A stretch of DNA of 64,000 nt, taken from positions 5,631 through 69,630 of the forward strand of contig JBCCMB010000001.1 in assembly GCA_039026555.1 (NCBI GenBank), read 5' to 3'. Position numbers and translations under genes: made by a program. Of this stretch, positions 18,692 through 59,017 are shown in pieces. The stretch is from Pseudomonadota bacterium (lineage in GTDB: Bacteria > Pseudomonadota > Alphaproteobacteria > Caulobacterales > Hyphomonadaceae). Positions within the stretch are counted from its first letter, which is position 1, and every line of letters starts with the position of its first letter. The notes below the pieces were generated by a model, which saw only the letters and a list, made by a program, of their open reading frames with translations, was not told the DNA's origin and made no database searches.

Positions 18692-18721
18692 TCCAAGACG
18701 TTGAAAACGTTTCAAAAATTT

Positions 18722-25953: not shown

Positions 25954-26079
25954 GAGCGTGCTGGCCACACGGAAACCGACATTGTTGTTTCGGTTCGTGG
26001 TGGTGTTCCTGTTGCGGTTCGCCGAGCGAAGGTTCTGCGGATTGTTGTTCCAGGAACCACCGCGGAGAACACGACGCGA
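25954..26079 (-). repeat. DGR template repeat (TR), 126 nt
   Basis: Collinear with the terminal 126 nt of four FGE-domain genes. It is AAY-rich (reads NNNPQNLRSANRNRNTTTNRNNN). By hand alignment, all mismatches to VR1, VR3 and VR4 lie at its adenines. The 3' end (GGCCAGCACGCTCCAC) differs from the VR ends (GGCCAGGACGCTTTRA). Confidence 0.85.
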
Positions 26080-28648: not shown

Positions 28649-28702
28649 ACGTCGTCCCCGCCGAACTCTAGAGAACACGCTAGTCCATCCATGAACGCAA
28701 TG

Positions 28703-29773
28703 TCACCCTAGAATGCGTTTGCCGTACTTTCGTTCGCCTAGAACTGCATTTCGCAGCTTGCGCGTGTGGGCGAAGTTGGCATGAGCCTCCCAGGCCTCGA
28801 TGCGGACGTGAGCGTCAGCCTCTGTCGTGGTTCCGGCGCTCAATTGGTCGCGGAGGCTGCGCAGGCGGTGACGGAAGCGCCGGATAGTCGCCTCGGGCAA
28901 GCGACGTACGCCTTTAGGCGCCAAGACATAGCACAGGAACTCCGCGGGCTCCGCTGTCGGCGCGACCCAAGTCTTCTGCGTATGAAGCTTTAACCGTCGC
29001 CCCTCCAGGAACCGAGCGATCCGATCCCGCCAATCTGCAAGGATTGCAGGATCGTCGTGAAACAATGCGAAATCGTCGACATATCGCACATAGGGCGCGC
29101 GGAGCACTTCAGTACAAAAATGGTCCAGCGGGTCTAGATAGAGATTGGCGAAAAATTGGCTGGTGAGATTTCCGATCGGCAGGCCGCGCCGGCGGGCGAC
29201 TGGCGCGAATAGATCGTCGCCTGGGAAATGTAGCTCCACCAGCTCTTGGCGGTTTGAAGCGTCGATGATGCAGTCCAGTAGGCCGAGCGTGCGCTCGCAT
29301 GCGAGACGCCGACGCAAATCGCGCTTGAGGATGGCGTGGTCGATGGCTGGGAAATAACGAAAGATGTCGCAGCGCAAGACGTAAGCGCAGCGATCACGAT
29401 AGCGCTCATACGCCTCCACCGCCCGGTGTGCGCCCTTGCCCCGCCGGTTGGCGAAGGTGTGAGCGATGAAGCCGCGTTCGAAAATTGGTTCTACGACGGC
29501 GCATACGGCGTGGTGAACCACGCGGTCGCGAAACGGGGCCGCGGAAACGATACGGTGCTTGGGATCGAAAAGTTCGATCTTCACATACCGGCCGGGGCGG
29601 TACTCGCCGCTTAACAGCGCGCGCTCAAGCGCCAAGCATTCCTTCTCTCGATCAGCCAGGAAAGCGGCGGCGCCAGGTTTCGTCTTTTTGCCGAGAGCTG
29701 CGCGGCGCGTCGCCGATACAAGCGCGCTGAAATTAGCGATCTGCGGACAAAGATTACGTTCACGCTTGGGCAT
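28703..29773 (-). CDS. DGR-type reverse transcriptase
   Basis: DPKHRIVSAAPFRDRVVHHAV, RRGLPIGNLTSQFFANLYL (the DGR hallmark I/LGxxxSQ) and YVRYVDDFALF (YxDD). 356 aa. No maturase or endonuclease domain and no intron-like flanks. Confidence 0.9.
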   Translation of the reverse strand: MPKRERNLCPQIANFSALVSATRRAALGKKTKPGAAAFLADREKECLALERALLSGEYRPGRYVKIELFDPKHRIVSAAPFRDRVVHHAVCAVVEPIFERGFIAHTFANRRGKGAHRAVEAYERYRDRCAYVLRCDIFRYFPAIDHAILKRDLRRRLACERTLGLLDCIIDASNRQELVELHFPGDDLFAPVARRRGLPIGNLTSQFFANLYLDPLDHFCTEVLRAPYVRYVDDFALFHDDPAILADWRDRIARFLEGRRLKLHTQKTWVAPTAEPAEFLCYVLAPKGVRRLPEATIRRFRHRLRSLRDQLSAGTTTEADAHVRIEAWEAHANFAHTRKLRNAVLGERKYGKRILG

Positions 29774-30143
29774 GACGCGCGGACGACGCTTTTAGCCAAC
29801 CTCCGATCAGACGTCCGACCTTGTCAATTTCACGAGCAGCGAATTCATAGCGGCGCGGGTCTAAATGGCGGAGATCATAGGCCAAGCGGAAGAGGTGGCG
29901 CAGTTTCTCCAGGCCGAGATTGGCGGCTTTCAGAGCTGGCGCGCGCTCGCGCGAATAGGTCGCGTCGATCAGGCGTTCCAGCACGTCTAGCGCGGTTCCC
30001 TGAATACGGTCGCCGAGGAGGAATTTCTGGCTGCGTGGAAACTTTTCGACCGCGGGGATCAGCCAGCGTAGGAAGCCGTTCATCGCTTCGAGCGCAGGAC
30101 CGATTTTCCGTTGCCCGGATTCATATTTCAGCGCCCCAAACAT
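29760..30143 (-). CDS. avd: Avd-like accessory variability determinant (four-helix-bundle protein)
   Basis: 127 aa, basic and helical (FPRSQKFLLGDRIQGTALDVLERLIDA...). Its 3' end overlaps the RT start by 14 nt. Confidence 0.75.
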   Translation of the reverse strand: MFGALKYESGQRKIGPALEAMNGFLRWLIPAVEKFPRSQKFLLGDRIQGTALDVLERLIDATYSRERAPALKAANLGLEKLRHLFRLAYDLRHLDPRRYEFAAREIDKVGRLIGGWLKASSARHAQA

Positions 30144-42641: not shown

Positions 42642-42775
42642 AGGGATTGCGCGGCCGATTCGGATCTCTTTCGCTTCGCCGGCATCTATCTTGATCCGCC
42701 GAGCATCGTCGACGCCGCCGTCGACTGTGACAATGAAACCGCCATCGGCGCGCTTTGTGCTCGCTTTGAACAGCG

Positions 42776-44170: not shown

Positions 44171-44339
44171 GAGCTCCCCTCCCAACCTGCTGCTAAACGT
44201 TAACGGACGGTCCCGCATTGCTCAAGCTTTCAGCTGCGACCCGTTCGGTCGCGGGCGGACAGCCTTGTTCGCCCTGGCGCATCCGCTAGGGTTCTGTATT
44301 GTCGCGTGAAGTGTTCAGCGTGTTGGGGACGAACGAAGC

Positions 44340-45704
44340 GTGGGATGGCTTCTTAGAGCTTTGGTCTGGTCTGTGGCGCTTGTTTGCTGCGCAGGGTTGG
44401 TCGGATGGTTTCTCATCGCCGGGCATAAACATGTTGCGGGTCTAGACGGGCCGGGGCGGCAATTAGAGACCGCGGTGATCTCCGCTGATGGTAGATACGT
44501 CGCTATTTTGCTCAATGATGGGGCGGCGGATGTTCAAACGATTGAGGGGGAGACGCTCGGGCTTATTCGCGGGCACGACGCGCCGTTGGCGGCGGCGCAT
44601 TTTTCGCCCGACGGCGAGATACTGATCACGATTGACGACGCGGGCAGTGTCCGCCGAACGCGGCTGGAGGGGCTCTTTTTTCGAGAAAGGGGGCATGGCG
44701 CCGATATGTCGGCGGCGGTCGAGCAGGCGGTTTGGGGCGATGCGTTGGCCGCACCGGCGGCGCTATTATGGGAGACAAGCGCGATCCATGCGCCCTGGAA
44801 GGCGTCGTCGCAGATTATGGATGCAGACACGCGCGCGCCTGTTTTGCCAAAGGGCGCAGTCCCGCCGCCGAGGAGCATGTTTCGAGATTGCGCAGATTGC
44901 CCGGAAATGCTGGTTGTTCCGCCGGGCGCATTCCTTATGGGCTCTCCTGAAGATGAAGAGGGGCGTGATCCCGATGAGGGCCCGCAGCGAGACGTGCGGA
45001 TCGATTATCCTTTCGCCGCGGCGCGGTTTGAGACGACGCTCGCGGAGTTTCAACGCTTCATGAAAGAGACTGGCCATGCGCCGGCGGGCGGGTGCGTCGC
45101 CGATTCCAACGGCGATGGGTTGTTGTCCGATGAGCCTGAGGCTAATTGGTCAAACACGGGGTTTGAACAAAGCGACGCCCAGCCCGCAGCCTGCGTTTCG
45201 TGGAACGACGCGCAGGCCTATGTGCATTGGCTGTCGCGCAAAACGGGCGAGACGTATCGTCTGCTTTCGGAAGCGGAATGGGAGTATGCGGCTCGGGCTG
45301 GGACGACGAGCGCCTATTTCTGGGGCTCAAGCGCAGATGCCGGCTGCGCTTATATGAACGGAGCGGACGCGACGGCGAAGCGCTCCTATCCTGGCTGGAC
45401 GACCGTGAGTTGCGATGACGGCTATTTGAATACGTCGCCCGTAGGCTCGTTCAACGCGAATGCATTTGGTCTTTACGACATGACGGGCAATGTTTCGGAG
45501 TGGACTGAGGATTGCTGGAATGAGAGCTATTCCGGTGCGCCGATAAATGGCTCGGCGTGGATAAGCGGCGAGTGCTCGCGTCGTGTTCTCCGCGGTGGTT
45601 CCTGGAGCGGCTATCCGCGGAGCCTTCGCTCGGCGCTCCGCGGCTGGAACTCCACCTCGGACCGGTACGACCATGTCGGTTTCCGTGTGGCCAGGACGCT
45701 TTAA
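44340..45704 (+). CDS. N-terminal TM anchor - short WD40-like segment - FGE-sulfatase (C-type lectin fold) protein; DGR target 3
   Basis: GTG start. TM segment LVWSVALVCCAGLVGWFLIAG. The FGE domain has MLVVPPGAFLMGS, VSWNDAQAYVHWLSRKTGETYRLLSEAEWEYAARAG, GLYDMTGNVSEW and RVLRGGSW. Confidence 0.8.
   Translation: MGWLLRALVWSVALVCCAGLVGWFLIAGHKHVAGLDGPGRQLETAVISADGRYVAILLNDGAADVQTIEGETLGLIRGHDAPLAAAHFSPDGEILITIDDAGSVRRTRLEGLFFRERGHGADMSAAVEQAVWGDALAAPAALLWETSAIHAPWKASSQIMDADTRAPVLPKGAVPPPRSMFRDCADCPEMLVVPPGAFLMGSPEDEEGRDPDEGPQRDVRIDYPFAAARFETTLAEFQRFMKETGHAPAGGCVADSNGDGLLSDEPEANWSNTGFEQSDAQPAACVSWNDAQAYVHWLSRKTGETYRLLSEAEWEYAARAGTTSAYFWGSSADAGCAYMNGADATAKRSYPGWTTVSCDDGYLNTSPVGSFNANAFGLYDMTGNVSEWTEDCWNESYSGAPINGSAWISGECSRRVLRGGSWSGYPRSLRSALRGWNSTSDRYDHVGFRVARTL
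45576..45701 (+). repeat. DGR variable repeat VR3
   Basis: I count 18 mismatches to the TR, all at TR adenines. It is on the opposite strand and ~19.5 kb from the TR. Confidence 0.85.
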
Positions 45705-45723: not shown

Positions 45724-45770
45724 GCGGGCGAGAGCCCGCGTCTTGTACCGGCGAAGCCGGTTCGGTTTTC
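45724..45770 (+). terminator. Post-VR3 module: GNRA-loop hairpin plus terminator-like hairpin
   Basis: GCGGGC-GAGA-GCCCGC (45724-45739), then ACCGGCGAAGCCGGT (45747-45761) followed by TCGGTTTTCG. Nearly identical to the module after VR1. Confidence 0.6.
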
Positions 45771-45965: not shown

Positions 45966-47306
45966 GTGTCTTCGGGGACAAGACAACATCAATTTGTTTT
46001 TGTCAGTCATGCGCGGACAGACAAACCCAAAATCAAGGCGATCGTAGACGCCCTTATTTCTGGCGACGATCCAATAAAGGTCTGGCTCGATAACCCATCT
46101 GTCATGGGCTATTCCCAAGCCGAAATCGAAGCATCTTTTATCGATTTGCACGGCGGCGGTCGCTGGGACGACCAAATCAATGATGCGCTGGAAGCCTCCA
46201 TGTGCGTTTTAGCGTGCGCCTCGCACAGCTTCACTAAGCGCTATCATGACGATACGGACAGCAAGAAGGGCAGCGTTATCCGCAAAGAGGTCACGGCCGG
46301 CGAGACGGGCGATAAGCTGGTCTCGTGTCGTATCGACGATCTTCCGTTCGGGAATCTGCCGGGCGCGCTGTCGGAGGCGCAGACGGTCGATTTGCATGAG
46401 ACGCCGGACAAGCTGTCCGCCTTGGTGCGCGATGTCCGCCGAAAGATTAAGACGGTCAATGAGCGCAAGGAAGCCGGCGGATTGCGCAGCGACGCAAAAC
46501 TTTATCTCGTCGACCGCACGCCGCAGGAAAACGCGGCGAAGAAAAGTATTGAAGCTGCAAGCGACGGCGGCGTCCACGCGCTGTTCGTAAAGGCGCCGCA
46601 AAATGAATGCCTAGATCTTTTTCAAGAGCGCCTGCGCGAGGAGACCAGTCGGATTAGCAACCATACCAGATGCGTTTGGCAGGAATTGCACGTGGAGTGG
46701 CCGTCGCTGGCCGCCTCGCGAGATGAGTTTGCAGACGCCTATTTGAGCAATTTGGCGAGCAAACTGGGTGCGCGCGTGTCCGACTTGACTGCAAACCTCT
46801 CCAAGCCTCGCCAGGCGCCGCTGGCGGCTGTTTCCTTCATGAGTATGAGCGAGTGGGGACGGAGCCGGTTGCAAAAGGATCGGTTGCGCGAGTGGCTGGC
46901 CTTATGGCGGCGATTGCAGGAGGATACACGCGAGCTAAAGGCGGTGCCGGTGCTCGCTGTCGAGTTGCCGGAAGCGGCGCCCAAATGGAAAACCACGCCC
47001 AAAGTCAGCGACGGAGGCGTGTCCTCCCTACAGATTTTGAGAGACGTGCGTGCGGTTGAGAAAGAAGCGAAGCGCTCTGACGATTATGTGCCCCTGCGCC
47101 GATTGGACACGCTCCATCCTGTAACGCACCCGGACGCCGTTCGATGGCTGAAACAATGCGGGTACAGCGAATCGAGCAAGCAATGGGACGAGTTGCGGTC
47201 GGCAATTGACGGCGCCTTCGCGCAGGGCCGCAAGCGGCTGAAGCGCATCGCTATGCTGACATTTAAAAGGCGTATGGACGCACTCGTTCGTGATGGGACG
47301 ATATAG
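45966..47306 (+). CDS. TIR-like domain protein with an uncharacterised ~300-aa C-terminal region
   Basis: GTG start. QHQFVFVSHARTDKPKIKAIVDAL...VWLD...CVLACASHSF fits a TIR/TIR_2 N-terminal domain. I recognise no P-loop or other motif in the rest. Confidence 0.6.
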   Translation: MSSGTRQHQFVFVSHARTDKPKIKAIVDALISGDDPIKVWLDNPSVMGYSQAEIEASFIDLHGGGRWDDQINDALEASMCVLACASHSFTKRYHDDTDSKKGSVIRKEVTAGETGDKLVSCRIDDLPFGNLPGALSEAQTVDLHETPDKLSALVRDVRRKIKTVNERKEAGGLRSDAKLYLVDRTPQENAAKKSIEAASDGGVHALFVKAPQNECLDLFQERLREETSRISNHTRCVWQELHVEWPSLAASRDEFADAYLSNLASKLGARVSDLTANLSKPRQAPLAAVSFMSMSEWGRSRLQKDRLREWLALWRRLQEDTRELKAVPVLAVELPEAAPKWKTTPKVSDGGVSSLQILRDVRAVEKEAKRSDDYVPLRRLDTLHPVTHPDAVRWLKQCGYSESSKQWDELRSAIDGAFAQGRKRLKRIAMLTFKRRMDALVRDGTI

Positions 47307-47314
47307 GGGACACA

Positions 47315-48388
47315 ATGATGACCGAACAACGCGCCGCTTATCCCTATTTCAAGCGAGGCATTGCGGGGTATGAGCAGGAGCCCGCGCCGCGAGCGGAAGA
47401 GGCGCGCCCTTATGATCGCAGAAAAGCGGAAGCGTCCGCCGACTATATCCCCCATGAGGATTTGTCTCACGCCGTCAATGTCGCCTTGGCGCTCGGCATG
47501 CCGCTCTTGCTCACCGGCGATCCCGGGACCGGCAAGACCCAACTCGCTTACGCCGTAGCGCATGACCTTCAATGCCCGGTTCACAAATTTGAAACCAAGT
47601 CGACGAGCGCCGCGAAGGATTTGTTCTACACCTATGACGCGCTAACCGCGTTCAAGATTAAGGAGGCGGCCGATCCGCGTCAGTTCATTCGCTACCAAGC
47701 GTTGGGCCGCGCCATATTAGAGGCGTTTCCCTCAAACCATCCCGCCGTCGAAAAGCTATTGCCTCCAGCGGGATCGCCCAACCACACGCATCCAGGGCGA
47801 CCGCGTCGCGCGGTCGTACTCATCGACGAGATCGACAAAGCGCCGCGGGATTTTCCCAATGACTTGCTCAACGAAATAGACCGTCTGCACTTCCGAGTGC
47901 CGGAGCTTCAAAATATCGGGTCCCCCGGAGCGGACGCCGCCGAACGAGGTGAAGACGAAAGCGAGCAAGGCGTGTCGCCGGAATTTCGGCCCATCGTCAT
48001 CCTAACGTCGAACTCCGAAAAGGGATTGCCCGATCCGTTCCTACGCCGCTGCGTTTACTATGACATTCCCTTCCCGGAAGGCGATCAGATGGCGAAAATC
48101 GTAGCGGCGCGCGTGAAAGGCGTGGACGCCGGCGACCCCATGCTCGCGGATGCGCTGGATCTCTTTTATTCGCTGCGCCACGACAAAGGGCTGACCAAGC
48201 TGGCCAAAGAGCCGTCGACGGCCGAATTGCTGAATTGGCTGCATTTGCTGCTTCATCGCGGCGTTGCTGGGGGTAAGTCCCTTAAGACCCAGCCGGATCT
48301 GGTGAAGCAGACAATCTCCACGCTCGTGAAGAATTCGCGCGATCGGGAAGAGGCGATCGCTTTTGTCGATAATTGGAAAGCCGGCTGA
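47315..48388 (+). CDS. MoxR-like AAA+ ATPase
   Basis: PLLLTGDPGTGKTQLAYAVA (Walker A), AVVLIDEIDKAPRDFPNDLLNEID (Walker B and the MoxR-typical stretch) and ILTSN (sensor 1). Confidence 0.85.
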   Translation: MMTEQRAAYPYFKRGIAGYEQEPAPRAEEARPYDRRKAEASADYIPHEDLSHAVNVALALGMPLLLTGDPGTGKTQLAYAVAHDLQCPVHKFETKSTSAAKDLFYTYDALTAFKIKEAADPRQFIRYQALGRAILEAFPSNHPAVEKLLPPAGSPNHTHPGRPRRAVVLIDEIDKAPRDFPNDLLNEIDRLHFRVPELQNIGSPGADAAERGEDESEQGVSPEFRPIVILTSNSEKGLPDPFLRRCVYYDIPFPEGDQMAKIVAARVKGVDAGDPMLADALDLFYSLRHDKGLTKLAKEPSTAELLNWLHLLLHRGVAGGKSLKTQPDLVKQTISTLVKNSRDREEAIAFVDNWKAG

Positions 48389-48412
48389 ACGGGGTAGGGC
48401 GGGATTTGCGCC

Positions 48413-51400
48413 ATGGCCGATGGAGCATCAGCAGCAGAGTTCGAGGACGAAGAGGTCGCGCGCCTTTTGGGCGACGAGCTGGAGCGGCTTTTTGATCGCC
48501 TAGACGAGGCGGGGCTTTTGGTGGGGCCGCGTGAGCGGTCGGCGGCTTACGCCATCGCGTTTCAATGGCTTGGCGGAACGCGCGCGCCGCCCGCCCGCGC
48601 ATCTGAGGCGATGTGGCGGCTTCGCCCGATGCTGGCGCCCGTTCTCGCCCGAACGCAAAATGATCGGGCAGTTTTCTTCCATGTGTTCGACACAAATTAC
48701 GAACCTCAGCCTATTAACCCGCCCGATGAGCCGGACCCACCCTTAAAGGGTTGGCCTTGGCGGCGGATCGTGCTGGGTATCGCGGCCACGATCATGCTCA
48801 GCGGATTGGCAAGCGTTGTCTATCATCGAACTCAGAATGAGGCCGACGTGGTCGTCGTCGAGGACGGCCCAAGCGGCGTCGCCAAAATCGAGCCAATTCA
48901 GACGGATGGCGATGCGCCGGTCGCGACTGAGAGGAGAGCCGCGCCATTGGCGGACCAAACGGCGAATGATTTTCTCAACCGCATTCGCGATGCCGCAACG
49001 GCAATCGATGGCGACGTCTACAGGTACGGCCTTGCTCCCACGCTGGAGGAAGTCGCCAAGGAGCTGATCGACGACTCCAGGTCGTTGCGAAACGCGACGC
49101 CGGCGGATGGTGGAGGCGTCGCGCTATCGTCTCAAACGACTATTTTAGCCGGCGGCGTATTAAGTGGCGCGGCGTTCTCAAATGATGAAACACGCATCCT
49201 CTCATGGAGCTCGGACAACACCGTCAGACTCTGGGACGCGCAGACCGGAGACCAGATCGGGCCGTCCATGCAACATAACTTCATCGTCCGGGGCGCGGTG
49301 TTCTCAAAGGATGACACACGCATCCTCTCATGGAGTGTGGACAACACCGTCAGGCTCTGGGACGCACAGACCGGAGACCAGATCGGACCGTCCATGCAGC
49401 ATGAGGACGCCGTCGGGGGCGCGGCGTTCTCAAATGATGAAACACGCATCCTCTCATGGAGCGACGACGCCACTGTCAGGCTTTGGAACGCACAGACCGG
49501 AAACCAGATCGGGACACTTATGGGACATGGACGCGACGTCTATGGCGCGGCGTTCTCAAAGGATGAGACGCGCATCCTCTCATGGAGCCGGGACGCCACC
49601 GTCAGGCTCTGGGACGCGCAGACCGGAGACCAGATCGGACCGTCCCTGCAACACGAGCACGTCGTCCTGGGCGCGGCGTTTTCAAAAGATGAGACACGCA
49701 TCCTCTCATGGAGCGACGACGCCACCGTGCGGCTTTGGGACGCCAACACAGGCGATCAGATCGGACGGCCAATGGTACATAAGGGCAGGGTATCTGGCGC
49801 AGCGCTCTCAAAGGACGAAAGCCGCATTCTGACTTGGAGTGAAGATGGAAGGATAAGCTCTTGGAGCGACCCGGGGGCCTCTTTAGACGCGGAGTGGAGC
49901 GCCGACGCCTATGCGCGCCGGCTGAGCGACCTTACCGGCTTGCCGGGCGGGGCGCCGTTATCGATTTTTGCGAACAATGGCGCGCTCTGGGCGCGCCTGG
50001 CCCATGCGCTGTCGCGGATGGAGCAGCCGGGTCGAGAGACGTCCTTGTCCCAACTTCGCGCCGACGCTGCCAAATCTCTGGAGGACGTCCAACCCTCGCG
50101 CGTAGATCGGATCGCCGAAAAGCTGCGCGCCCTAGACGCCCCGCCGACGGATCGCGCCGCGCTCTTTGACGCCGTTTTCGCCCTCGATGAAGCAGCCGCG
50201 TCCGATGCGCCCAGCATAGATCAAAACATCGGTTTTGGTCCGGCCTCCGACGTGCTGCGCGCCGCCGCGATCGCCGGCTTGGATGCGGCGCGATATGGCG
50301 ATCCGCCGTGGCTGAACCTTAAGCCGCCGGCGCGTCCGGCCGCTTCGCCCGCGCCGGCCTGGCTGTGGCCTCTTTCTGTTTTGATACCGCTGGCGTTCGC
50401 GTTTTGGGTGGCGTCGTCGCTCGCTTTGAAGCGCGCCTATCTTCGCCGCCGCGCGCCGCGCGTCCCGCCGCTTCATACCAAATTCGTCAGCGAGGCCGGC
50501 CGGAACGTCGCCTATCAAGCGGGTCTCTTCCAGCGCGCCGCGCAGCAATTGCTCACGCGAACGCCCCGCGCCAGCGCCGCAATCGACATTCCTGCGACGG
50601 TCTCGGCGACGCTTGCGGAAGGCGGCGAGATTATCGCGCCGGTTTTTAAGGATGCGCGTCTGCGTCCCGAATATCTGGTGCTGATTGAAGCGAACGCCGC
50701 CGGCGACCAGGAGGCGCGCCGGTTGAGGCGGATGGCCGAGCGTCTAGAGGACATCGTCGATTTAGACGTCTTTTACTATCAGACCGATCCTGGCGAGTTG
50801 GAGAGTGAGGACGGCGCGAACCGCATCACAATTGAACAAGCCCAGTCGCGCTATCCGGACCATCGATTGATCATTCTCGGGACGGGCGGAGGCTTTCTTG
50901 ATGCCGTGGATTTGTCTCTTCGTCCCCCAGCGCAGAAGCTTTTCTATTGGGAGCGGCGCGCGCTGCTGACGCCTATTCCTCTCGCGGAGTGGAGCAAAGA
51001 GGATTACGCGCTGGCCAAAGCGCTAGAGATGCCCATCGGGCGTGCGACGCCTGAGGGTCTGCTCACGCTCGCCGAACTGCTCGGGTTAGAAGGCGCTGAA
51101 GCTGGGACCGAACCCAACCCGAGCGGAGACGGCTTGGCGCGCCCGCTGCCGGACTTGTTTCGCAATCGCTCGCAGCGCTTTTTGTTCAACGCGCCGCCCG
51201 ACCAAGCAACAATAGCCGATCTTCTACGTGAATTGCGCAATTATCTAGATCCGTCGGCGTTCGATTGGTTCGCGTCATTAGCGGTTTATCCGAATGTTCA
51301 ATGGGATTTGACGCTGCTTCTGGGAGTCAAGCTGCCCCGTGCGCCGGGAGAGGACTTTGCCACTAATCCGCTTTATGATGAACGTCGGCTGGCCGCGATC

Positions 51401-54400
51401 ACGCAGTTGCCTTGGCTGCGGTCGGGCCGCATGCCCAACTGGCTCAGACGCACTTTAATTAGCAAGCTGTCGCCCGAGCGGCGCGAGGAGATCAAGGCCG
51501 TTCTGGACGAGCTGCTTGAAAATGCGCGACCTAAGAACAAACACGAAGTCGACGCGATCGAACTCAGTATCCGTCGCGATAAGCCTAAAGACACAACACG
51601 AACTGACCGTTTGCTAGACGACGAAGTCCTGCTCGACTTTCTCGCCTCCGGCCAACGAGAGGATTTTGCGTTGGCGCGGTTCTCACGGTTCGCTGAATTG
51701 TTCGATCGCGGGTTTTGGGATCGGATAGGCGGGCCCGAAGGCGTTGCGGGCGCAGCAGCGCTAGCCTTCTCATTGACCGCGTTTGTCGTTACCCCGCGCG
51801 CCGCAGACGGCGCTGTTGTGACCGGTGCTTATGCGCCGCTATGGCTTTTGGGCGTCGGGGGGCTGCTGGTCTTTGCATTCTGGAAGCCCGACATTGCGGC
51901 GGCTCGTCTCGGCGCCGCGTTCGAGCGCGCCGCGCCTGGCGCTTTGGCTTTGTTCTTGGCGACGCTGGGCCCGCTCGCGGCGGCGTACGTCAGCGCTCGA
52001 TCAGGTGTAGATCCGCTGTCTATAGTCGCGACGTCGAATACCACGTCATTTTGGATCTGGGGCGCGTATATCGCTCAATTTGGTCTTCTCGTCGGCGGGC
52101 TTTGGGTCTCACGTTCGATCTGCACGCGCTTTGGCCTTCGCATCTACGTCGCTGCATCGCTGCCTGATTGGGCCGAGTTGTCGATCAAAGCTGCGGGGCT
52201 GGGCGCGTTCGCTTTGGCGATAACAGCGCTCGCCGGAAATGTTCCCGGCCTAGCCGAGTTTTCGCGCTCGCCACTTGTTGACCCAGACCAATTGGACGCG
52301 TCGGCGATGCTTTGGCTCGGCGGTTGTCTCGCCGTATTTTTGTTGGGCTGGCTGGCTGCGCAGTTCGCGCCGGATATGCAGACGATCCGGGCGGCGAGCG
52401 CCGGCCGCAGCGCAAAGCCCGCACTATTCGCGATTGTCGCACGCGCCCTCGCCGCACTTGTTCCCGTTGTAGCGTCATTGGCGGCCTATTGGCATGTGTC
52501 CTTGACCTCGTCGCGATCAGACCTCGCTATGGATGAGACGGTTTTCCGACCCGCTCTGACCGCAATATCGCCGGACGGCGAGACGCTCGCAGCGGTCGAC
52601 ATCGCCGGGCGGCTTGTCGTTTCGCATGCCAACGCCGCCGCGCCTTACCGCGCCGACCCGACGCAATTGAGCGACGCGCGCGCGCCGTTCACGGCGTTGG
52701 CGGTTGGCGGCGAAGGTGAAGCCGTCATCGCTTTCGCAGATGCAGACGGACGAGTCTTTGAGGCGACGCCGTATCGCGACGCCGTCGCGCCCGTCGTTGA
52801 TCCGTCGGAAAATTCCGGTCGGGCGCGTAGCGACGGCGCGCCGGCCCAACTCGCGTTCGGCCCCAACGCGCAACTCTGGACGGCGATAGAGACAGCGGAA
52901 GTCGGTGTTCGCGTTATCACCGCAGGCCGAGCTTGGAACGACGCGGAGCAGAGCGGCCCGCCACAAGCACTTATTGCTGTGAGTGGAGGCCGAGCGGCCT
53001 TAGCGACACTGGACGGCCGTATTCGTTTGGTGACGCCCACAAGCGACGGTCTCGCCGTTCAGCTGATTGGCGCCAGCGGGTCTCTCGCGCCGTCGCGTCA
53101 GCTCAGTTTCGATCCGGACACGATGACACTTCGCGCTGGTCTGATCGATGGCGAGATATGGGAAGCAAATTTGGTCGACAGCGGCGCTTCGTTCGAATTT
53201 GTAGGCCGCGCCAACGCCATGGCGCTCGGGCCGGCGCCTCTCTACACGACATCTTCTGAGATCTCACCATTTGTTGGGCCCGCCACGCCCTCGGGCAGGC
53301 GGCTCGCGCTTGTAATTGGAAACGCCGAGTACGAGCAATTACCAGACCTGAAGAATCCCTTGAACGATGCGCGCCTCATTTCTGAGTCGTTGGAAAGTTT
53401 AGGTTTCGAAGTATCCCGGCTACAAAACGCGTCGCGCAACGAAATGCTTCAAGCGGTGCGTCAACATGCTCAGAATGTCGCGGCCGCCGGGCGTAATTCT
53501 GTGAGTTTTGTTTATTTTGGGGGACAAGGCGTTGAGATAGACGGTCAAAACTATTTGATTCCAACTGACTTGAGTGCGCACGAGCCAGCCACCGTCCGAA
53601 GCGATTCACTACTTCTCAATGATGTAATAAGTGAAATCGATACGGTCGGGCCAGCGGCTAGCCTTTTCGTACTGGATACCTGCCGAAACGATCCATTTTC
53701 TGGCCAACGCGGATCAATCGGCCAAGGTTTTGCTCCCGCGAACGCGCCGACAAACACCTTCATCGCCTTTGCGGTCGAACCAGGAGGGATAGCGCTCGAC
53801 AGTTTGGATGCGAGGGACAATAACAGTCCTTACACCTCGACGTTGGCGGAGACCTTGCTTATTCCGGGGTTATCTGTGCAGGATGCGTTTGCCGAGGTTC
53901 GCCGCAAGGTGACGGCTGCGACATCAGGCGAACAAGTGCCATGGATATCGGACCGTTTAGCGAGCGAATTTTGTTTCGCTGGCTGCGAGGTGCAAACGCC
54001 CGAGCCGGCCGCCATCCCCTCGGCGCTCCCACCTCGCCTCTATATCCAGATCGCTTCAGAGGCGCAGCGCGAAGACGCGTTACGTGTTCGCGAGGCGTTG
54101 TCGCCGCTCGACGTAGACGTGCCGGAGTTTGAGGTGCGTAGCGCGAGCATGCCGGACCGGGGGGAGTTTCGCTATTTCCGGCGCTCGGAAGAGGGGCTGG
54201 CGCGTGAAACGTACAACGCGCTGCCGGATCTCGACGCCGGCGGTGCCGCCTTTGTCTACGTGTCCGGCTATGAGGACTCCGAGGACATCCGAGACAATCA
54301 TTTCGAGCTTTGGCTGCCCGGTCCTACGATGTTGGAGGACGATTTCCAGCCGGGTTTCGAGTTTCGCGATGTGATTGAGGGCGCGCCGGAGATCGCGACA

Positions 54401-55135
54401 CCCGAGATGGTCGTGATTCCGTCGGGTCGGTTCCTGATGGGTTCGCCGGCGTCTGAGGCCGCGCGCGACGATGATGAAGGCCCGGTTCGGACGGTTCGGA
54501 TCGATTATCAGTTTGCGGTCGGCAAGTATGAAGTGACCTGGGCGGAATGGGAGGCGTGCGTCGCCGACGGCGCGTGCGATGACGCCGGTCCGGTCGGCGC
54601 AGACGGGGATGAAGGCTGGGGGCGCGGGTCGCGTCCTGTGATCAATGTGGATTGGAACGATGCGCAGGCCTATGTGCGCTGGCTGTCGCGCAAAACGGGC
54701 AAGACGTATCGTCTGCTGTCTGAAGCGGAATGGGAGTATGCGGCTCGCGGGGTGACGACCACAGAAGCCGTCTCGACGCGTTTCAGCTGGGGAGACGAGG
54801 ATCCGGTTTGCGAACGCGGCGCGCCGAACGGGGCGGTGTTTAGTCGATGCGAAGGCGGGGGAACGCGGCCCGTTGGGTTTTCGGCTCCGAACGCCTTTGG
54901 TCTTTACGATATGCACGGCAATGTTTGGGAATGGGTGGAGGATTGCTGGAATGACAGCTATTCTGGCGCGCCATCGAACGGCTCAGCTTGGACGCGCGGC
55001 GGATGTTCGCGTCGTGTTCTCCGCGGTGGTTCCTGGGGCAACGATCCGCAGCTCCTTCGCTCGGCGGACCGCCTCAGGAGCACCACCGCGAACCGACTCG
55101 ACTATGTCGGTTTCCGTGTGGCCAGGACGCTTTAA
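48413..55135 (+). CDS. Giant 2240-aa multidomain protein: N-terminal domain - TM - WD40 repeats - TM - large unassigned region - ~7 TM helices - propeller-like region - caspase-like (C14) domain - FGE-sulfatase domain; DGR target 4
   Basis: Six 42-aa WD40 repeats (TRILSWSxDxTVRLWDAQTGDQIG). Hydrophobic helices at about aa 115, 650 and 1130-1400. Caspase-like RRLALVIGNAEYEQLPDLKNPLNDA...VYFGGQG...NYLIPTD...FVLDTCRND. The FGE domain has MVVIPSGRFLMGS...RVLRGGSW. Confidence 0.85.
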   Translation: MADGASAAEFEDEEVARLLGDELERLFDRLDEAGLLVGPRERSAAYAIAFQWLGGTRAPPARASEAMWRLRPMLAPVLARTQNDRAVFFHVFDTNYEPQPINPPDEPDPPLKGWPWRRIVLGIAATIMLSGLASVVYHRTQNEADVVVVEDGPSGVAKIEPIQTDGDAPVATERRAAPLADQTANDFLNRIRDAATAIDGDVYRYGLAPTLEEVAKELIDDSRSLRNATPADGGGVALSSQTTILAGGVLSGAAFSNDETRILSWSSDNTVRLWDAQTGDQIGPSMQHNFIVRGAVFSKDDTRILSWSVDNTVRLWDAQTGDQIGPSMQHEDAVGGAAFSNDETRILSWSDDATVRLWNAQTGNQIGTLMGHGRDVYGAAFSKDETRILSWSRDATVRLWDAQTGDQIGPSLQHEHVVLGAAFSKDETRILSWSDDATVRLWDANTGDQIGRPMVHKGRVSGAALSKDESRILTWSEDGRISSWSDPGASLDAEWSADAYARRLSDLTGLPGGAPLSIFANNGALWARLAHALSRMEQPGRETSLSQLRADAAKSLEDVQPSRVDRIAEKLRALDAPPTDRAALFDAVFALDEAAASDAPSIDQNIGFGPASDVLRAAAIAGLDAARYGDPPWLNLKPPARPAASPAPAWLWPLSVLIPLAFAFWVASSLALKRAYLRRRAPRVPPLHTKFVSEAGRNVAYQAGLFQRAAQQLLTRTPRASAAIDIPATVSATLAEGGEIIAPVFKDARLRPEYLVLIEANAAGDQEARRLRRMAERLEDIVDLDVFYYQTDPGELESEDGANRITIEQAQSRYPDHRLIILGTGGGFLDAVDLSLRPPAQKLFYWERRALLTPIPLAEWSKEDYALAKALEMPIGRATPEGLLTLAELLGLEGAEAGTEPNPSGDGLARPLPDLFRNRSQRFLFNAPPDQATIADLLRELRNYLDPSAFDWFASLAVYPNVQWDLTLLLGVKLPRAPGEDFATNPLYDERRLAAITQLPWLRSGRMPNWLRRTLISKLSPERREEIKAVLDELLENARPKNKHEVDAIELSIRRDKPKDTTRTDRLLDDEVLLDFLASGQREDFALARFSRFAELFDRGFWDRIGGPEGVAGAAALAFSLTAFVVTPRAADGAVVTGAYAPLWLLGVGGLLVFAFWKPDIAAARLGAAFERAAPGALALFLATLGPLAAAYVSARSGVDPLSIVATSNTTSFWIWGAYIAQFGLLVGGLWVSRSICTRFGLRIYVAASLPDWAELSIKAAGLGAFALAITALAGNVPGLAEFSRSPLVDPDQLDASAMLWLGGCLAVFLLGWLAAQFAPDMQTIRAASAGRSAKPALFAIVARALAALVPVVASLAAYWHVSLTSSRSDLAMDETVFRPALTAISPDGETLAAVDIAGRLVVSHANAAAPYRADPTQLSDARAPFTALAVGGEGEAVIAFADADGRVFEATPYRDAVAPVVDPSENSGRARSDGAPAQLAFGPNAQLWTAIETAEVGVRVITAGRAWNDAEQSGPPQALIAVSGGRAALATLDGRIRLVTPTSDGLAVQLIGASGSLAPSRQLSFDPDTMTLRAGLIDGEIWEANLVDSGASFEFVGRANAMALGPAPLYTTSSEISPFVGPATPSGRRLALVIGNAEYEQLPDLKNPLNDARLISESLESLGFEVSRLQNASRNEMLQAVRQHAQNVAAAGRNSVSFVYFGGQGVEIDGQNYLIPTDLSAHEPATVRSDSLLLNDVISEIDTVGPAASLFVLDTCRNDPFSGQRGSIGQGFAPANAPTNTFIAFAVEPGGIALDSLDARDNNSPYTSTLAETLLIPGLSVQDAFAEVRRKVTAATSGEQVPWISDRLASEFCFAGCEVQTPEPAAIPSALPPRLYIQIASEAQREDALRVREALSPLDVDVPEFEVRSASMPDRGEFRYFRRSEEGLARETYNALPDLDAGGAAFVYVSGYEDSEDIRDNHFELWLPGPTMLEDDFQPGFEFRDVIEGAPEIATPEMVVIPSGRFLMGSPASEAARDDDEGPVRTVRIDYQFAVGKYEVTWAEWEACVADGACDDAGPVGADGDEGWGRGSRPVINVDWNDAQAYVRWLSRKTGKTYRLLSEAEWEYAARGVTTTEAVSTRFSWGDEDPVCERGAPNGAVFSRCEGGGTRPVGFSAPNAFGLYDMHGNVWEWVEDCWNDSYSGAPSNGSAWTRGGCSRRVLRGGSWGNDPQLLRSADRLRSTTANRLDYVGFRVARTL
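49150..49900 (+). repeat. Tandem 126-bp in-frame repeats encoding WD40 blades
   Basis: Period 126 nt (units start at 49166, 49292, 49418 and so on). Units 1 and 3 share an identical 45-nt string, GGCGCGGCGTTCTCAAATGATGAAACACGCATCCTCTCATGGAGC. The sixth unit is degenerate. Confidence 0.85.
55007..55132 (+). repeat. DGR variable repeat VR4
   Basis: I count 14 mismatches to the TR, all at TR adenines. It is on the opposite strand and ~29 kb from the TR. Confidence 0.85.
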
Positions 55136-55156: not shown

Positions 55157-55206
55157 GCCGCGCAAGCGGCGGGGCTAGAACTCGCGAAGCGGGTCAAGAT
55201 TTTTTT
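55157..55206 (+). terminator. Post-VR4 module: GNRA-loop hairpin plus rho-independent terminator
   Basis: GCCGC-GCAA-GCGGC (55157-55170), then ACTCGC-GAA-GCGGGT (55180-55194) followed by CAAGATTTTTTT. Confidence 0.55.
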
Positions 55207-55783: not shown

Positions 55784-58675
55784 TCATCGGGGCCTCTCGT
55801 CTAGGTCTGGCGGCGTCGCGAAGTCCGAGGGCGAGATTAATCGAGAAGACGGACCCGGAGGAACGCCATCCCAAGCGCTGAAGAATGAAGGCAGCGTGGC
55901 GAGCGGCGGAAGGCCGTTGTCAGATGCGCGATCTGGCGATTTACTCAACTGCTCAAAGGCTGCGCAGTAGTTTCGCCCAAGCGCGACCGTGTGGCTTACG
56001 TCAAGAAGACGAATAGACCCATCTTCCAACGCTAAGCCAAGCGTTGCGCCATCGGTCAAAAATCTGGCGCTCCATACCGGTCGATCATGCTCGACGCTCC
56101 AAAACAAGGTCTTGGCGTCTAGCGGGTCAAACACGCCCACTTCACCCCCGCGCGTCGCGGCAGCGACACGATTGTCTCCTGCCGCGATACAAACACTGGT
56201 GATTGCGTGGCTGGAAATGACTAATCTTCTTTCGATGACTTTTTCATCGCGATTCCACGTGACTACAGCGCCATCGGAGCAACCACCGACGCATGTTATC
56301 CCGTCGGCCGATACGGCTAGCGACGTAAGCGCAACATCTGCAATTACCGTCCGACTAGAAACGTTCAGCGACCGCCCATCCAAGCGGACATCAAAAGCTT
56401 GGCCAGTATCACTGGTAACCAAAAATTCGGTTTCGTTCATTGCCACGACAGCGAGGAGGCTCCCTGCACGAAGGTCTAGCGTTGCGATCCTTTCTCCGTT
56501 TCGCGCGTCTACAACGCTCACGACGCTGTAGCCCGAGACGACCACCACCGCGCGTCCCCGTTCAAGCCAAGCACCGCACCACTGGACAGCGTCGCCTAAA
56601 GCACGCGTGAAGCGCCATGCGTACCGCGACAAATCCAAGACGCCAAGTGAGCCTTTGCCAAAACAAACAAGCGCCGCCTCGCTTCCGGGAGAAATTGTTA
56701 TGTGAGTTGCAACGGCATCAATTCCTGACTCTACAGTGCGACCACATCCTTTGGAGGACGTTGCGCCGACAGAACCATTTCGAAATGCTGCGACCAACGT
56801 TTGGCCGTCTTCGCTGAAATCCAAAGACGTGACACCACCGCCTTGGCACCAGAGTCCCTGCCGCATCACGCTGCGCCGTCCAGCGGTGGCGCGAGCTTGC
56901 CCAAGTGAGACTGGTTGATACCCCTTCGGATCCAAGGTGTCGCGACGCCAAACATCAATCGAGCCTGCCGCCGTCAAACCGACCAAAACAGATCCGTTGC
57001 TTCTAAGAGCGATCTGTTGATATTCCAATCCTGAAGGGACTGTGGCAGCGAGCGTGCCATCAGACGTTTGGACGACGGCAATGCTTTGATCGCCGCGCTG
57101 CAGGGCGAGATAATTTCCGTCTGCCGAAAACGTAAACGCGCGGCCCTCAACAGCCTCAGACGGCAAATCAACAAGCCACTCCAATTCGTGCCGATCCGCA
57201 CCTCTCTTCAGATGATACAGTGAACGCGGCACAAGTGCGTGTGCATGAGGTCTATAACCTTCAACGAAAACAAATCGGCCAGAAGGATCAAAGCGCGCAG
57301 CCCTCACCTCCGGGTTTTGATACCATGGCCTAATTTTTACTGAGCGATCGCTTCCAGCCCTCGAGATTTCTTGAGTCTCGCCTTCTCGCCATTGACGAAG
57401 CACGCCAAAGCCCGACATCGCAACGATCCGACGGGCTACTTCATCGAAATAGGCGTCAACAAACGACGTAAAGCCAGCTTCCGCGTGCGCGATCCGTTGT
57501 CCAGTCTTGGTATCCCAAACCCTCCCATGATTGATCAATTCCATCGTCAGCACCGTCGATCCGCCAGACGTAAACTTGGCGACCTGGGTGATGATCGGTT
57601 TGGTGATAACATGTGTGCCCGTTTGCTTGGACTGTGCATCCCACACAAACACGGCGCCGTCCTCAAACGTGATCAACACGTTCATAGACTCACCAGCTAA
57701 GTCAAACGCTGCGATTGGCCGGTCGAACGTAACAAATTCACGTAGTGATAAATCTACAGAACTGCGAAAGGTGAGTGTAGAATCAGCTGCCGTGACGATG
57801 AGGTCCGCGCTCTCGACGATACCGAGTTTCGCGCCGTCGCTGGCGGCTGCCTTAAATTGATCAAACGGCAATCCAAGGGTCGAAAGCGCCTGAGAGGCCG
57901 CCGCTGTCAGCTGTGGCGCCCACGTGAGCGCCTCATAGCCACGCGCTTCGCCGAACTCGCGCATCCGCCTCAACGCGTCGGCGTATCGTCCGCGCTGCAT
58001 ATCGAGCTGAGCCTCGCCAGCAATTCGCCGGGCTTGGTCCACTTGCGCGCGCAACCGACTTTCCGCGACGAAGGCCATAAGTGTTTCAGTCAGGGGCGCT
58101 GCTGCGCCCGGCACCGTTTTTATGACCGCGTCCGCGTCATCGACGAGTAGGTCTGGCAAGAGCAGGCCGTCCTCGCGACTCGCGCGATCCCATTCTGCTG
58201 CACGAGCGGTGAGATCGGAATGCGCGCGCACCCACTTGATATCGGTGTCGATAGCTCCGCAAAGCTTCTTTAGCGCCATCTCGCTCATCATTGGCGGGTG
58301 GCTATGACCGTTGAGCGGGTCGTCTGAGAAGACCCAATTCAGTTGCCCGAGTAGCGATGGAGCCACAAGCTTCCGCTTGCCGTGCGCAACAGGAAGCAAC
58401 CGCTTGCCGAGCGACGTTGCTCTCTCAACCTCCCATCCACAATGCTCCGAGGAGAGAGAGGCGTCTGTTACAACAAAAACGACGACGTCAGCCCTGAGGA
58501 TCAGGTTCTCCAGCCGCGTCCTCCACGCTTCACCGGCGCCAATGTCCTCCCTATCGATCCAAGCATCATAACCACGGCTGATTAGAGAAGTTCGCAAGCT
58601 GTCCGTGAAGGCGCTGTCCGCTCGGCTGTACGAGATAAAGACACTGATCCGCCGTGTATCGTCGTTGTCGGGCAT
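55784..58675 (-). CDS. TIR domain - helical linker - divergent beta-propeller (WD40-like) repeat protein
   Basis: ATG 58675: MPDNDDTRRISVFISYSRADSAFTDSL...DAWIDREDIGAGEAW...VVVFVVTDASLSSEHCGWEVERA (TIR). About 650 aa of irregular repeats follow (ITSVCIAAGDNRVAAATRGGEVGVFD and similar). No FGE domain and no VR. Confidence 0.75.
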   Translation of the reverse strand: MPDNDDTRRISVFISYSRADSAFTDSLRTSLISRGYDAWIDREDIGAGEAWRTRLENLILRADVVVFVVTDASLSSEHCGWEVERATSLGKRLLPVAHGKRKLVAPSLLGQLNWVFSDDPLNGHSHPPMMSEMALKKLCGAIDTDIKWVRAHSDLTARAAEWDRASREDGLLLPDLLVDDADAVIKTVPGAAAPLTETLMAFVAESRLRAQVDQARRIAGEAQLDMQRGRYADALRRMREFGEARGYEALTWAPQLTAAASQALSTLGLPFDQFKAAASDGAKLGIVESADLIVTAADSTLTFRSSVDLSLREFVTFDRPIAAFDLAGESMNVLITFEDGAVFVWDAQSKQTGTHVITKPIITQVAKFTSGGSTVLTMELINHGRVWDTKTGQRIAHAEAGFTSFVDAYFDEVARRIVAMSGFGVLRQWREGETQEISRAGSDRSVKIRPWYQNPEVRAARFDPSGRFVFVEGYRPHAHALVPRSLYHLKRGADRHELEWLVDLPSEAVEGRAFTFSADGNYLALQRGDQSIAVVQTSDGTLAATVPSGLEYQQIALRSNGSVLVGLTAAGSIDVWRRDTLDPKGYQPVSLGQARATAGRRSVMRQGLWCQGGGVTSLDFSEDGQTLVAAFRNGSVGATSSKGCGRTVESGIDAVATHITISPGSEAALVCFGKGSLGVLDLSRYAWRFTRALGDAVQWCGAWLERGRAVVVVSGYSVVSVVDARNGERIATLDLRAGSLLAVVAMNETEFLVTSDTGQAFDVRLDGRSLNVSSRTVIADVALTSLAVSADGITCVGGCSDGAVVTWNRDEKVIERRLVISSHAITSVCIAAGDNRVAAATRGGEVGVFDPLDAKTLFWSVEHDRPVWSARFLTDGATLGLALEDGSIRLLDVSHTVALGRNYCAAFEQLSKSPDRASDNGLPPLATLPSFFSAWDGVPPGPSSRLISPSDFATPPDLDERPR

Positions 58676-59017
58676 CCAATCTCCCCCAAGTCCGAAATGC
58701 ACGCCAGTCCATTGCATTGGGAGACTAAACACCGATAGCAGATATCGTCCACACGGGACGGTCGTGAACGGCGGGAGCGCGCGTGCGGGAGGGCCGCGCT
58801 GTGTCCGCTCCGCGATTAATCACGGCCGGCGCCGAGGCATCGTCTCAGACGCCTGTTCCGTTGTTCGATGTCCCTCAACGTCACCCAAAGGGCTATGACG
58901 CGACTGGACTGGTCTCGAATTACCTGAATTAAAACAATTTTGACCCGCTTCTTGATCTGGCCGGCGCCGCCTCTCACCCGCACGCTTGCGCTCGTTAGAT
59001 TTAAGGAGCGCCTAGGC

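Follow-up and report, generated by a model that had tools for sequence, protein, structure and literature searches.

We analysed a 64,000-nucleotide stretch of a Hyphomonadaceae genome (assembly GCA_039026555.1, contig JBCCMB010000001.1, positions 5,631 to 69,630; hereafter the window), in which a gene for a MoxR-like AAA+ ATPase is followed by one for a giant membrane protein whose C-terminus is a target of a diversity-generating retroelement (DGR). Positions 45966-55135 of the window probably constitute, in classification and anatomy, a three-gene unit of the iSTAND ternary conflict type, which was defined by Kaur, Burroughs, Iyer and Aravind (2020, eLife 9:e52696; PMC7159879) as a MoxR ATPase accompanied by a vWA protein and an inactive-STAND (iSTAND) protein. 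The open reading frame (ORF) listing gives a 357-aa AAA+ ORF and a 2240-aa ORF on the forward strand, separated by 24 nt as the initial annotation of this DNA had stated; the giant ORF contains no internal stop over 6.7 kb. That annotation treated the two genes as a pair and overlooked a third, the TIR-iSTAND gene on the same strand, which stops 8 nt 5' of the ATPase start. Since the gaps are short, the three genes share one strand and a consensus scan revealed no terminator-like site in either the 8-nt or the 24-nt gap, they are likely to form a single unit. Purine-rich runs lie 5' of the ATPase start and 5' of the giant-ORF start. Terminator-like hairpins were found after the giant ORF and, at 45747-45761, 3' of a short gene with an FGE domain only that adjoins the trio; these sites are consensus matches only, and the region total of 19 compares with 13.7 ± 3.7 expected.

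The product of the first gene matched the Pfam families TIR_2 (E 2e-10, 41.7 bits, cutoff 28) and iSTAND (PF19995; E 9.7e-7, 29.7 bits, cutoff 24); a PDB sequence search with its TIR region gave no usable match. This protein is the conserved third component of the system and its likely effector or adaptor, likelier as effector than the giant protein. The ATPase matched AAA_5 over the Pfam cutoff (E 3.7e-10) as well as Pfam AAA, and its Walker A (GDPGTGKT), Walker B (VVLIDEIDK), sensor-1 (TSNSE) and arginine (FLRRC) motifs are invariant across 27 homologs. Hydropathy revealed no hydrophobic segment in the ATPase or in TIR-iSTAND, and the ATPase is predicted from these features to be active and cytoplasmic. 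Its top PDB profile matches were midasin AAA domains (E ~2e-10); midasin falls in the MoxR/dynein helix-2-insert clade and is itself paired with a domain carrying a metal ion-dependent adhesion site (MIDAS) (PMC7159879). An identical protein carries the NCBI name 'MoxR family ATPase'. The comparison of bpMoxR with the ATPase profile reached an E of 0.013 only, and the top NCBIfam match, 'MadB family AAA-type ATPase' (NF047784, E 1.2e-18), reached 67 bits, well short of its 475-bit cutoff; a literature search on MadB yielded nothing. A megablast search of a plasmid collection returned no match for the locus, and the exact sequence of the ATPase was absent from the contig index searched.

The association of the three genes is widespread. 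A scan of one genome per species gave at least 562 relatives of the ATPase, of which the best 80 loci were kept; 72 of these had at least 2.5 kb of 3' DNA, and their ORFs were searched with a profile of the alpha/beta module of the giant protein described below. A module-containing ORF lies directly 3' of the ATPase gene, on the same strand, in 66 of the 72 loci, which bears out the co-occurrence of ATPase and giant gene by which the initial annotation had proposed to judge its pairing. The upstream ORF matched Pfam iSTAND in 44/68 loci, with varied N-termini: TIR_2 (14), TIR (7), EAD11 (10), DUF4062 (6), trypsin (5), kinase (3), CHAT (3), caspase (2), other effector-associated domains (EADs) and a bacterial Death-like domain. 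The C-termini of the downstream proteins vary as well, with FGE in 23, WD40 in 9 and caspase-like domains in 2 of the 72, and penicillin-binding protein (PBP) transpeptidase, PEGA and TPR domains in others. The ATPase loci come from cyanobacteria, Beggiatoa-like gammaproteobacteria, Desulfobacterales, Saprospiraceae and other Bacteroidota, Planctomycetota, Acidobacteriota and alphaproteobacteria.

Among the closest loci even the gene order is retained: the succession FGE, (Avd), TIR-iSTAND, ATPase, giant recurs in the independent metagenomes L001, L002, L003, L087 and L088. The FGE gene holds the same slot 5' of the trio in L001 and L003; L087 has FGE, Avd and a reverse transcriptase (RT) gene immediately 3', and bAvd was found in both L001 and L087. 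Giant WD40-containing products of 1984 or 2460 aa are encoded in L001, L002 and L003, with L004, L005, L087 and L088 as further loci. Among individual relatives, P0143 is 47% identical to the giant protein over aa 1-1111 and P0147 35% over aa 495-1869.

A few of these loci deserve mention in their own right. In a Planctomycetota metagenome-assembled genome (MAG; L023:9955-14862) ATPase and module protein share one uninterrupted frame, a possible fusion that comes in addition to the 66 loci counted above. The module protein of Sphingomonas colocasiae (L039:10865-15028) ends in PBP dimerisation and transpeptidase domains, and that of a Haliangium MAG (L066:10824-13991) in PEGA and TPR. In a Hyphomonadaceae MAG (CP096134.1; L005/L007) the orthologous gene is fragmented, its ORFs measuring 340, 120, 484 and 277 aa. 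Frameshift errors or decay are the probable cause, and such cases call for caution in annotation-based surveys of the family.

The central question is whether the giant protein supplies the vWA component. The initial annotation had left a region of about 480 aa without assignment, and it is true that Pfam models no part of the aa 673-1108 family at E <= 1e-3. The region nonetheless belongs to a very large conserved family with a confident fold. A word-indexed homolog search gave 10 relatives of aa 673-1108, an apparent rarity superseded by an exhaustive profile search, which collected 3909 representative clusters at E <= 1e-3, of which 2541 also reached E <= 1e-30. The family alignments show an alpha/beta part, a helical part and a multi-transmembrane block, in that order. 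The consensus of the alpha/beta part reads LDxxATVxAT..GG...PV....R..PEYLVLIDR....DQ ... HRL...SDG.GF ... W..RALLTP; in the helical part the W, P and G columns are invariant (alignments A2 and A3). Modelled whole with AlphaFold2, aa 673-1108 gave a mediocre pLDDT of 62, with helices in the helical domain (aa ~913-1040) at pLDDT 70-89, while aa 708-902 by themselves gave a pLDDT of 93.6 and a pTM of 0.85 from a 43-sequence alignment. The model runs beta1 (EYLVLIE), helix, beta2-beta3 hairpin, helix, beta4 (RLIIL), helix, beta5, helix, beta6, and as modelled this order is vWA-like rather than flavodoxin-like. When the 43 domain segments were compared with Pfam at E <= 1, VWA_CoxE (PF05762) matched 15 of them (best E 5.8e-5) and any other family at most one member.

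Two positions of this fold were followed through 150 family members. No DxSxS motif occurs in the giant protein or anywhere in the family, so that the absence of the motif from the giant ORF, first noticed by eye, stands. At the end of beta1 the residue is D in 85 and E in 55 members; at the end of beta4 it is D in 81, S in 27, T in 17, E in 13 and A in 9. The two positions co-vary, with 74 D,D pairs, 21 E,S, 16 E,T and 9 E,A, and judging from the alignment they behave as one functional pair that is kept or lost jointly. The giant protein belongs to the subfamily without the pair, with E759 at the end of beta1 and T824 at the end of beta4 in place of both metal-site aspartates. The suspicion that a degenerate partner domain might lie around LVLIEANAAGDQ...HRLIILGTGGG was accurate as to the site, which coincides with the conserved beta1 and beta4 strands; the vWA fold itself was not confirmed by Foldseek or HHalign. 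We nevertheless lean towards reading aa 708-902 as a strongly divergent CoxE-type vWA domain.

Several results weigh against this interpretation and against the wider classification. The CoxE matches span only profile positions ~12-68, that is, the stretch before beta1 and beta1 itself, and all lie under the curated cutoff. Foldseek, proposed in the initial annotation for segments of the ORF, returned no significant match for the whole of aa 673-1108 and, against the PDB, none at E <= 1e-3 for the domain alone; the weak matches (E 0.015-0.08, TM-score <= 0.46) include flavodoxin-like folds and vWA domains at similar ranks. E. coli YehP is a bona fide VWA_CoxE protein, and HHalign gave nothing with YehP alone or with a 25-sequence alignment, a template profile that is poor (Neff ~2) as the YehP homolog search returned only relatives of at least 66% identity, too uniform for a sensitive profile. 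YehP did not match the family profile in a local hmmsearch either. PDB sequence-profile searches with the module family (A2, A4) produced spurious matches only, and Pfam revealed no canonical vWA intermediates among the weakly matching or non-matching downstream proteins of the related loci. Both putative metal ligands are replaced; therefore classical MIDAS peptide capture cannot apply as such. On the side of the ATPase, bona fide MoxR, RavA, CbbQ and NorQ structures are absent among the 60 listed of its 70 PDB matches. PADLOC-DB v2 contained no matching system and returned only P-loop-level or generic TIR, caspase and RT matches. Our literature searches revealed no experimental study of an iSTAND ternary system, and the membrane topology set out below is a prediction from hydropathy and charge counts only.

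In a rival reading the module would be not a vWA domain but a separate Rossmann- or flavodoxin-like domain, with the ATPase coupling elsewhere, for instance to the N-terminal helical domain; the locus would then be a MoxR system with no vWA partner at all. The top Foldseek matches are flavodoxin-like (a cobalamin-binding domain and the SsuE FMN reductase), and none is significant; the YehP comparison was negative, the family lacks DxSxS, and Doré et al. (2024, PNAS 121:e2316469121; PMC10907252) report 'no predicted domains' at the vWA position of such targets. Yet VWA_CoxE is the sole recurring Pfam family (15/43), the modelled beta2-beta3 hairpin after alpha1 is a vWA feature and not a flavodoxin one, and roughly half of the family retains the acidic ends of beta1 and beta4, which are lost jointly. 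vWA domains also appear in the Foldseek list, namely the Pactolus I-domain (rank 3), NorD of the NorQD complex (rank 9) and ANTXR2 (rank 15). Moreover, Kaur et al. assigned a vWA domain to the third component by profile-profile methods (PMC7159879). We consider a non-vWA module rather unlikely and prefer the divergent vWA domain.

The remainder of the giant protein was largely as first described. The WD40 repeats, the transmembrane (TM) segments, the caspase-like domain and the FGE domain were recovered by Pfam or hydropathy in the order given in the initial annotation; its 'propeller-like' region found no profile match (Table 1). Ahead of TM1 is a helical domain (aa 1-116) that has no Pfam match and is kept, with a TM segment after it, in 71/72 downstream proteins in a local jackhmmer search, and also in P0003, P0009 and P0010. 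WD40 and other beta-propeller Pfam families matched the protein with E down to 2.6e-40. At the DNA level five in-register WD40 copies repeat with a 126-nt period and a mutual identity of 80-84%, a pattern that suggests recent tandem amplification or ongoing homogenisation of the 126-nt units (49039-49842) inside the gene. The beta-rich region of aa 1365-1628 shows recurring DG-x-hydrophobic strands and has a homologous stretch in P0147, with no Pfam match at E<=10; its identity as a propeller is conjectural. A SPOR-like reading of aa 1860-1995 was dropped for lack of a Pfam match.

The caspase-like domain departs from an active peptidase. Alignment with MALT1 pairs YYAGHGYE with VYFGGQGVE and LLDMCRK with VLDTCRN, which places Gln1705 at the position of the catalytic His and retains Cys1757; the His-Cys dyad of active caspases is thus incomplete, and the domain is probably catalytically dead to judge from this alignment. 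Because the catalytic His is missing, the giant protein looks more like a sensor or scaffold than an effector; the initial annotation had called it a sensor-effector. The caspase-like domain of P0147 (2244 aa) has the opposite pattern, with His kept (FYFAGHAY) and no catalytic Cys (IIDSHDN). From these sequences, activity seems to have been lost by different routes in separate lineages.

As to topology, lysine plus arginine counts are 8 after TM2, then 3, 3 and 3, in the inward loops and 1, 1 and 1 in the outward loops. This alternation fits the positive-inside pattern across nine TM segments, the seven-TM block running from N-in to C-out. The N-terminal, vWA-like and helical domains would accordingly be placed on the cytoplasmic side, and the WD40 loop together with the C-terminal 880 aa (beta-rich region, caspase-like domain and FGE domain with VR4) on the periplasmic side. 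The PBP-transpeptidase or PEGA C-termini of relatives are consistent with an extracytoplasmic C-terminus, and the predicted topology fits the report that a subset of iSTAND systems acts at the membrane or cell wall (Kaur et al. 2020, PMC7159879).

The FGE domain described in the initial annotation as bearing variable region (VR) 4 does contain a genuine DGR variable region. Of the 15 mismatches between VR4 and the template, 14 are at template adenines, and all fall in codon positions 1 or 2. Adenine-specific mismatches between template repeat and VR at the 3' end of a gene, and a cognate RT in the same element, are the marks of a DGR target, and both are present. The RT gene and the template are on the strand opposite to VR4, at a distance of about 19-29 kb. 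Template adenines account for 18 of the 19 mismatches of VR3, in the FGE-only gene; non-adenine mismatches are more numerous in VR2 (7/23) than in the other VRs. A single template serves four targets on both strands, namely a TIR-FGE gene (26264-28678), a TIR-nSTAND1-FGE gene (30919-33858), the FGE-only gene (44340-45704) and the giant ORF. It lies ~190 nt 3' of VR1 and not between Avd and RT.

Table 1. Positions in the window of the gene trio, of the segments of the giant protein and of the DGR components.
Feature	Position	Strand	Basis
TIR-iSTAND protein, 446 aa	45966..47306	+	Pfam TIR_2, iSTAND
MoxR-like AAA+ ATPase, 357 aa	47315..48388	+	Pfam AAA_5
Giant polytopic membrane protein, 2240 aa, DGR target, 'vWA component'	48413..55135	+	Intact ORF; orthologous single ORFs
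N-terminal helical domain, aa 1-116, predicted cytoplasmic	48413..48760	+	Conservation in relatives
TM1, aa 117-138	48761..48826	+	Kyte-Doolittle 19-aa window maximum 2.13; RR on N-terminal side
Six WD40 repeats of 42 aa each, aa ~250-490, TM1-TM2 loop, predicted periplasmic	49160..49882	+	Pfam
TM2, aa 650-672, followed by KRAYLRRRAPR	50360..50428	+	Hydropathy, charge
Alpha/beta module, aa 708-902, predicted cytoplasmic	50534..51118	+	Family conservation, AlphaFold2
Conserved helical domain, aa ~913-1040	51149..51532	+	Motifs ALAVYPxxQWDLTLYLG, LPWLRxGxMPNWLR
Seven-TM block, aa 1108-1360	51734..52492	+	Hydropathy; kept in P0001, P0005, P0147
Beta-rich 'propeller-like' region, aa 1365-1628, predicted periplasmic	52505..53296	+	Homologous stretch in P0147
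Caspase-like (C14) domain, aa 1629-1853	53297..53971	+	Peptidase_C14, E 4.9e-34
FGE-sulfatase / C-type-lectin-fold domain with VR4, aa 1996-2238	54398..55126	+	PF03781, E 1e-55
VR4, DGR variable region, within last 45 codons of giant ORF	55007..55131	+	Alignment to template
Terminator-like hairpin (55180-55194) and T-run, 45 nt past giant ORF stop	55180..55204	+	Consensus match
Short FGE-only DGR target with VR3, adjoining trio on 5' side	44340..45704	+	PF03781, E 1.1e-63
DGR template repeat common to VR1-VR4	25955..26079	-	Repeat alignment
DGR reverse transcriptase	28703..29773	-	RVT_1, E 2.1e-14; PADLOC RT, E 3.4e-43
Candidate Avd, 127 aa, directly 5' of RT	29760..30143	-	By eye: position, size, helical sequence

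Set beside the published ternary systems, the locus shows three of six features: a MoxR-clade AAA+ ATPase in the operon, an adjacent inactive-STAND protein with an effector or adaptor N-terminus, and a conserved neighbourhood combined with a variable C-terminus; the Asp pair is missing, and the remaining two features are represented by a putative vWA fold and by a helical N-domain whose identity with that of CoxE is conjectural. Kaur et al. list TIR, peptidases, EADs and Death-like domains at iSTAND N-termini, and describe a vWA component with a CoxE-type 4-helix N-domain, N-terminal TM segments in ~28% and C-termini in which FGS is commonest (~22%), followed by caspase-like and repeat domains (PMC7159879). 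The trio likewise combines TIR-iSTAND, a MoxR-like AAA+ ATPase that lacks VMAP-type extensions and, as the third protein, one with a helical N-domain and TM segments; it shares the variable C-terminus that includes FGS/FGE, caspase-like domains and repeats, and the spread over cyanobacteria, proteobacteria and Bacteroidota. It differs in several respects. E759 and T824 stand here in place of the two vWA aspartates, whereas most ternary-system vWA domains retain the pair and Asp-less subsets have been reported for other subsystems (PMC7159879). A WD40 propeller between TM1 and TM2, 5' of the vWA-like module, was seen in no relatives but the closest. With its nine TM segments the protein is predicted to expose large domains on either side of the membrane; it is of extreme size and carries a caspase-like domain without its His, and the present locus appears to be cargo of an integrative conjugative element.

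The DGR loci of Doré et al. offer a second close parallel. In these ('clade 5A', Thiohalocapsa DGR 8 and DGR 9) a MoxR-like ATPase lies immediately 5' of the target, and a target extension 'without predicted domains' replaces the vWA domain; a short lectin-only target and TIR or peptidase genes lie near, TM segments in some targets would lead to a periplasmic lectin, and the diversified target was proposed to be the sensor (PMC10907252). Our locus shares the ATPase directly 5' of a DGR target without Pfam-predictable vWA, the extra lectin-only target and the adjacent TIR gene. The N-terminal extension was unassigned there, whereas here it represents a large family with a confident alpha/beta fold and a recurrent CoxE signal. 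The counts obtained at this locus reproduce the published descriptions of ternary systems and of MoxR-DGR loci, and the fit to both is close. A MoxR ATPase without vWA partner, put forward as a new puzzle in the initial annotation, is therefore an arrangement already contained in these two reports (PMC7159879, PMC10907252). The puzzle probably dissolves because the pair belongs to a published ternary system and the partner domain is present, in degenerate form, at the suspected site.

Two further comparisons are instructive. As in CoxD-CoxE, NorQ-NorD and YehL-YehP, a MoxR/midasin-clade AAA+ ATPase is encoded beside a protein with CoxE-type features before and at beta1; unlike those pairs, the present one has no MIDAS, its partner is membrane-bound and receptor-like as opposed to a soluble maturation factor, and there is a third, iSTAND component. 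The TIR-nSTAND1-FGE gene of the same island, a STAND/NLR-type sensor that shares the template repeat, also combines a DGR-diversified FGE sensor, an NTPase switch and a TIR domain. There a single soluble polypeptide unites them and its STAND NTPase is active, whereas here they are distributed over three genes with a MoxR-type AAA+ switch and an inactive STAND.

On the function of the trio we can offer a tentative proposal, which falls somewhat short of an even chance; we infer the topology, the direction of signalling and the role in defence. The hypervariable periplasmic lectin (FGE) domain, whose ligand-binding surface the DGR would rewrite, would bind an invader-derived ligand. The seven-helix membrane block would relay the change on binding to the vWA-like and N-terminal domains in the cytoplasm, which would be a substrate or co-chaperone of the MoxR ATPase. 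ATP-driven remodelling would then act as a threshold switch that releases or assembles TIR-iSTAND, the TIR domain would degrade NAD+ or produce a nucleotide signal, and the infected cell would arrest growth or die. Kaur et al. put forward the MoxR-vWA couple as an ATP-dependent threshold switch that governs the deployment of effectors (PMC7159879). Gating of the giant protein by the ATPase, as suggested in the initial annotation, is likewise conjectural. Still more doubtful is the fuller version of this proposal, a transmembrane antigen receptor with a hypermutated periplasmic lectin and WD40 domains, a seven-helix bundle that passes the binding signal inward, a metal-independent, vWA-derived handle for MoxR and TIR-iSTAND as executioner.

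The same genes could be read without any signalling, the ATPase serving only to mature or insert the giant protein and the latter being a surface receptor by itself. MoxR-clade ATPases with vWA partners are classically maturation chaperones (CoxD/CoxE, NorQ/NorD; PMC7159879), NorD is among the Foldseek matches, and a 2240-aa client with nine TM segments might plausibly need help in folding. However, the ATPase is linked just as tightly to short downstream proteins of 565-900 aa, and an assembly chaperone leaves unexplained the linkage to a third gene with TIR, trypsin, CHAT or EAD N-termini; we consider this reading unlikely. Less likely again is a service to the mobile element itself, in which the lectin would recognise ligands of a partner cell or envelope, perhaps for exclusion, kin discrimination or addiction. 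In its favour are the predicted periplasmic side of the sensor domains and the position of the island, flanked at one end by an integrase adjacent to tRNA-His with a relaxase gene and at the other by type IV secretion genes; but many genomes carry the trio with no conjugation genes visible close by, and its architecture is generally ascribed to anti-invader systems (PMC7159879). That the giant ORF is an assembly or annotation artefact fusing several genes is very improbable. The source is a metagenome-assembled genome, and the related complete MAG (L005/L007) shows the region in several ORFs; yet the frame is open over 6.7 kb, the core, and in part the C-terminal domains, recur in single ORFs of 1984 aa (two samples), 2460 aa and 2244 aa from independent metagenomes, upholding the initial single-ORF reading, and frameshift errors explain the L005 fragmentation more simply. 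The ternary conflict unit remains the reading that we prefer.

The surroundings of the trio are those of a mobile island. A tRNA-His gene (18615-18691) abuts a phage-type integrase gene (18647-20005), followed by a relaxase/DUF3363 gene (23610-25613), and on the far side are the gene of a TraG/VirD4 coupling protein (58940-61036) and that of a VirB11-type ATPase (61428-62516). The DGR and the conflict-gene island thus appear to be cargo of an integrative conjugative element. Between the candidate Avd gene and the second target, overlapping ORFs of 74 and 109 aa (30222-30772, reverse strand) look by eye like a DUF433-type antitoxin and PIN-like (DUF5615) toxin pair. Three reverse-strand genes just 5' of the FGE-only target (38875-44218) encode products of 633, 622 and 480 aa, the first without Pfam match, the second a Trypsin_2 protein and the third bearing a peptidoglycan-binding domain at its C-terminus; peptidase or adaptor partners have been reported beside such DGR loci, and these products may be of that kind. 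Just after the giant ORF and convergent with it is the gene for a 982-aa TIR + WD40 protein (55784-58732, reverse strand). In the orthologous locus L001 this position is occupied by a TIR + TPR protein, and the 982-aa product may be a further, variable partner of the trio.

Taken together, these results refine a published computational prediction and leave the established picture unchanged. What they add is modest: a module family that is large and conserved, metal ligands that are lost as a pair, and a predicted transmembrane topology of the sensor. The 'domain-less' extension of MoxR-linked DGR targets gains an identity as a large family with a predicted alpha/beta fold and a CoxE-type signal, and the locus provides a compact and complete example in which RT, candidate Avd, template, four targets and a three-gene switch are carried on one mobile element. 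If the predicted topology is true, it would reveal how a cell-death effector is coupled to hypervariable receptors on the other side of the bacterial inner membrane; and were the antigen-receptor version to hold, invaders would be detected outside the cytoplasm by a somatically diversified receptor coupled to an ATP-gated death switch.

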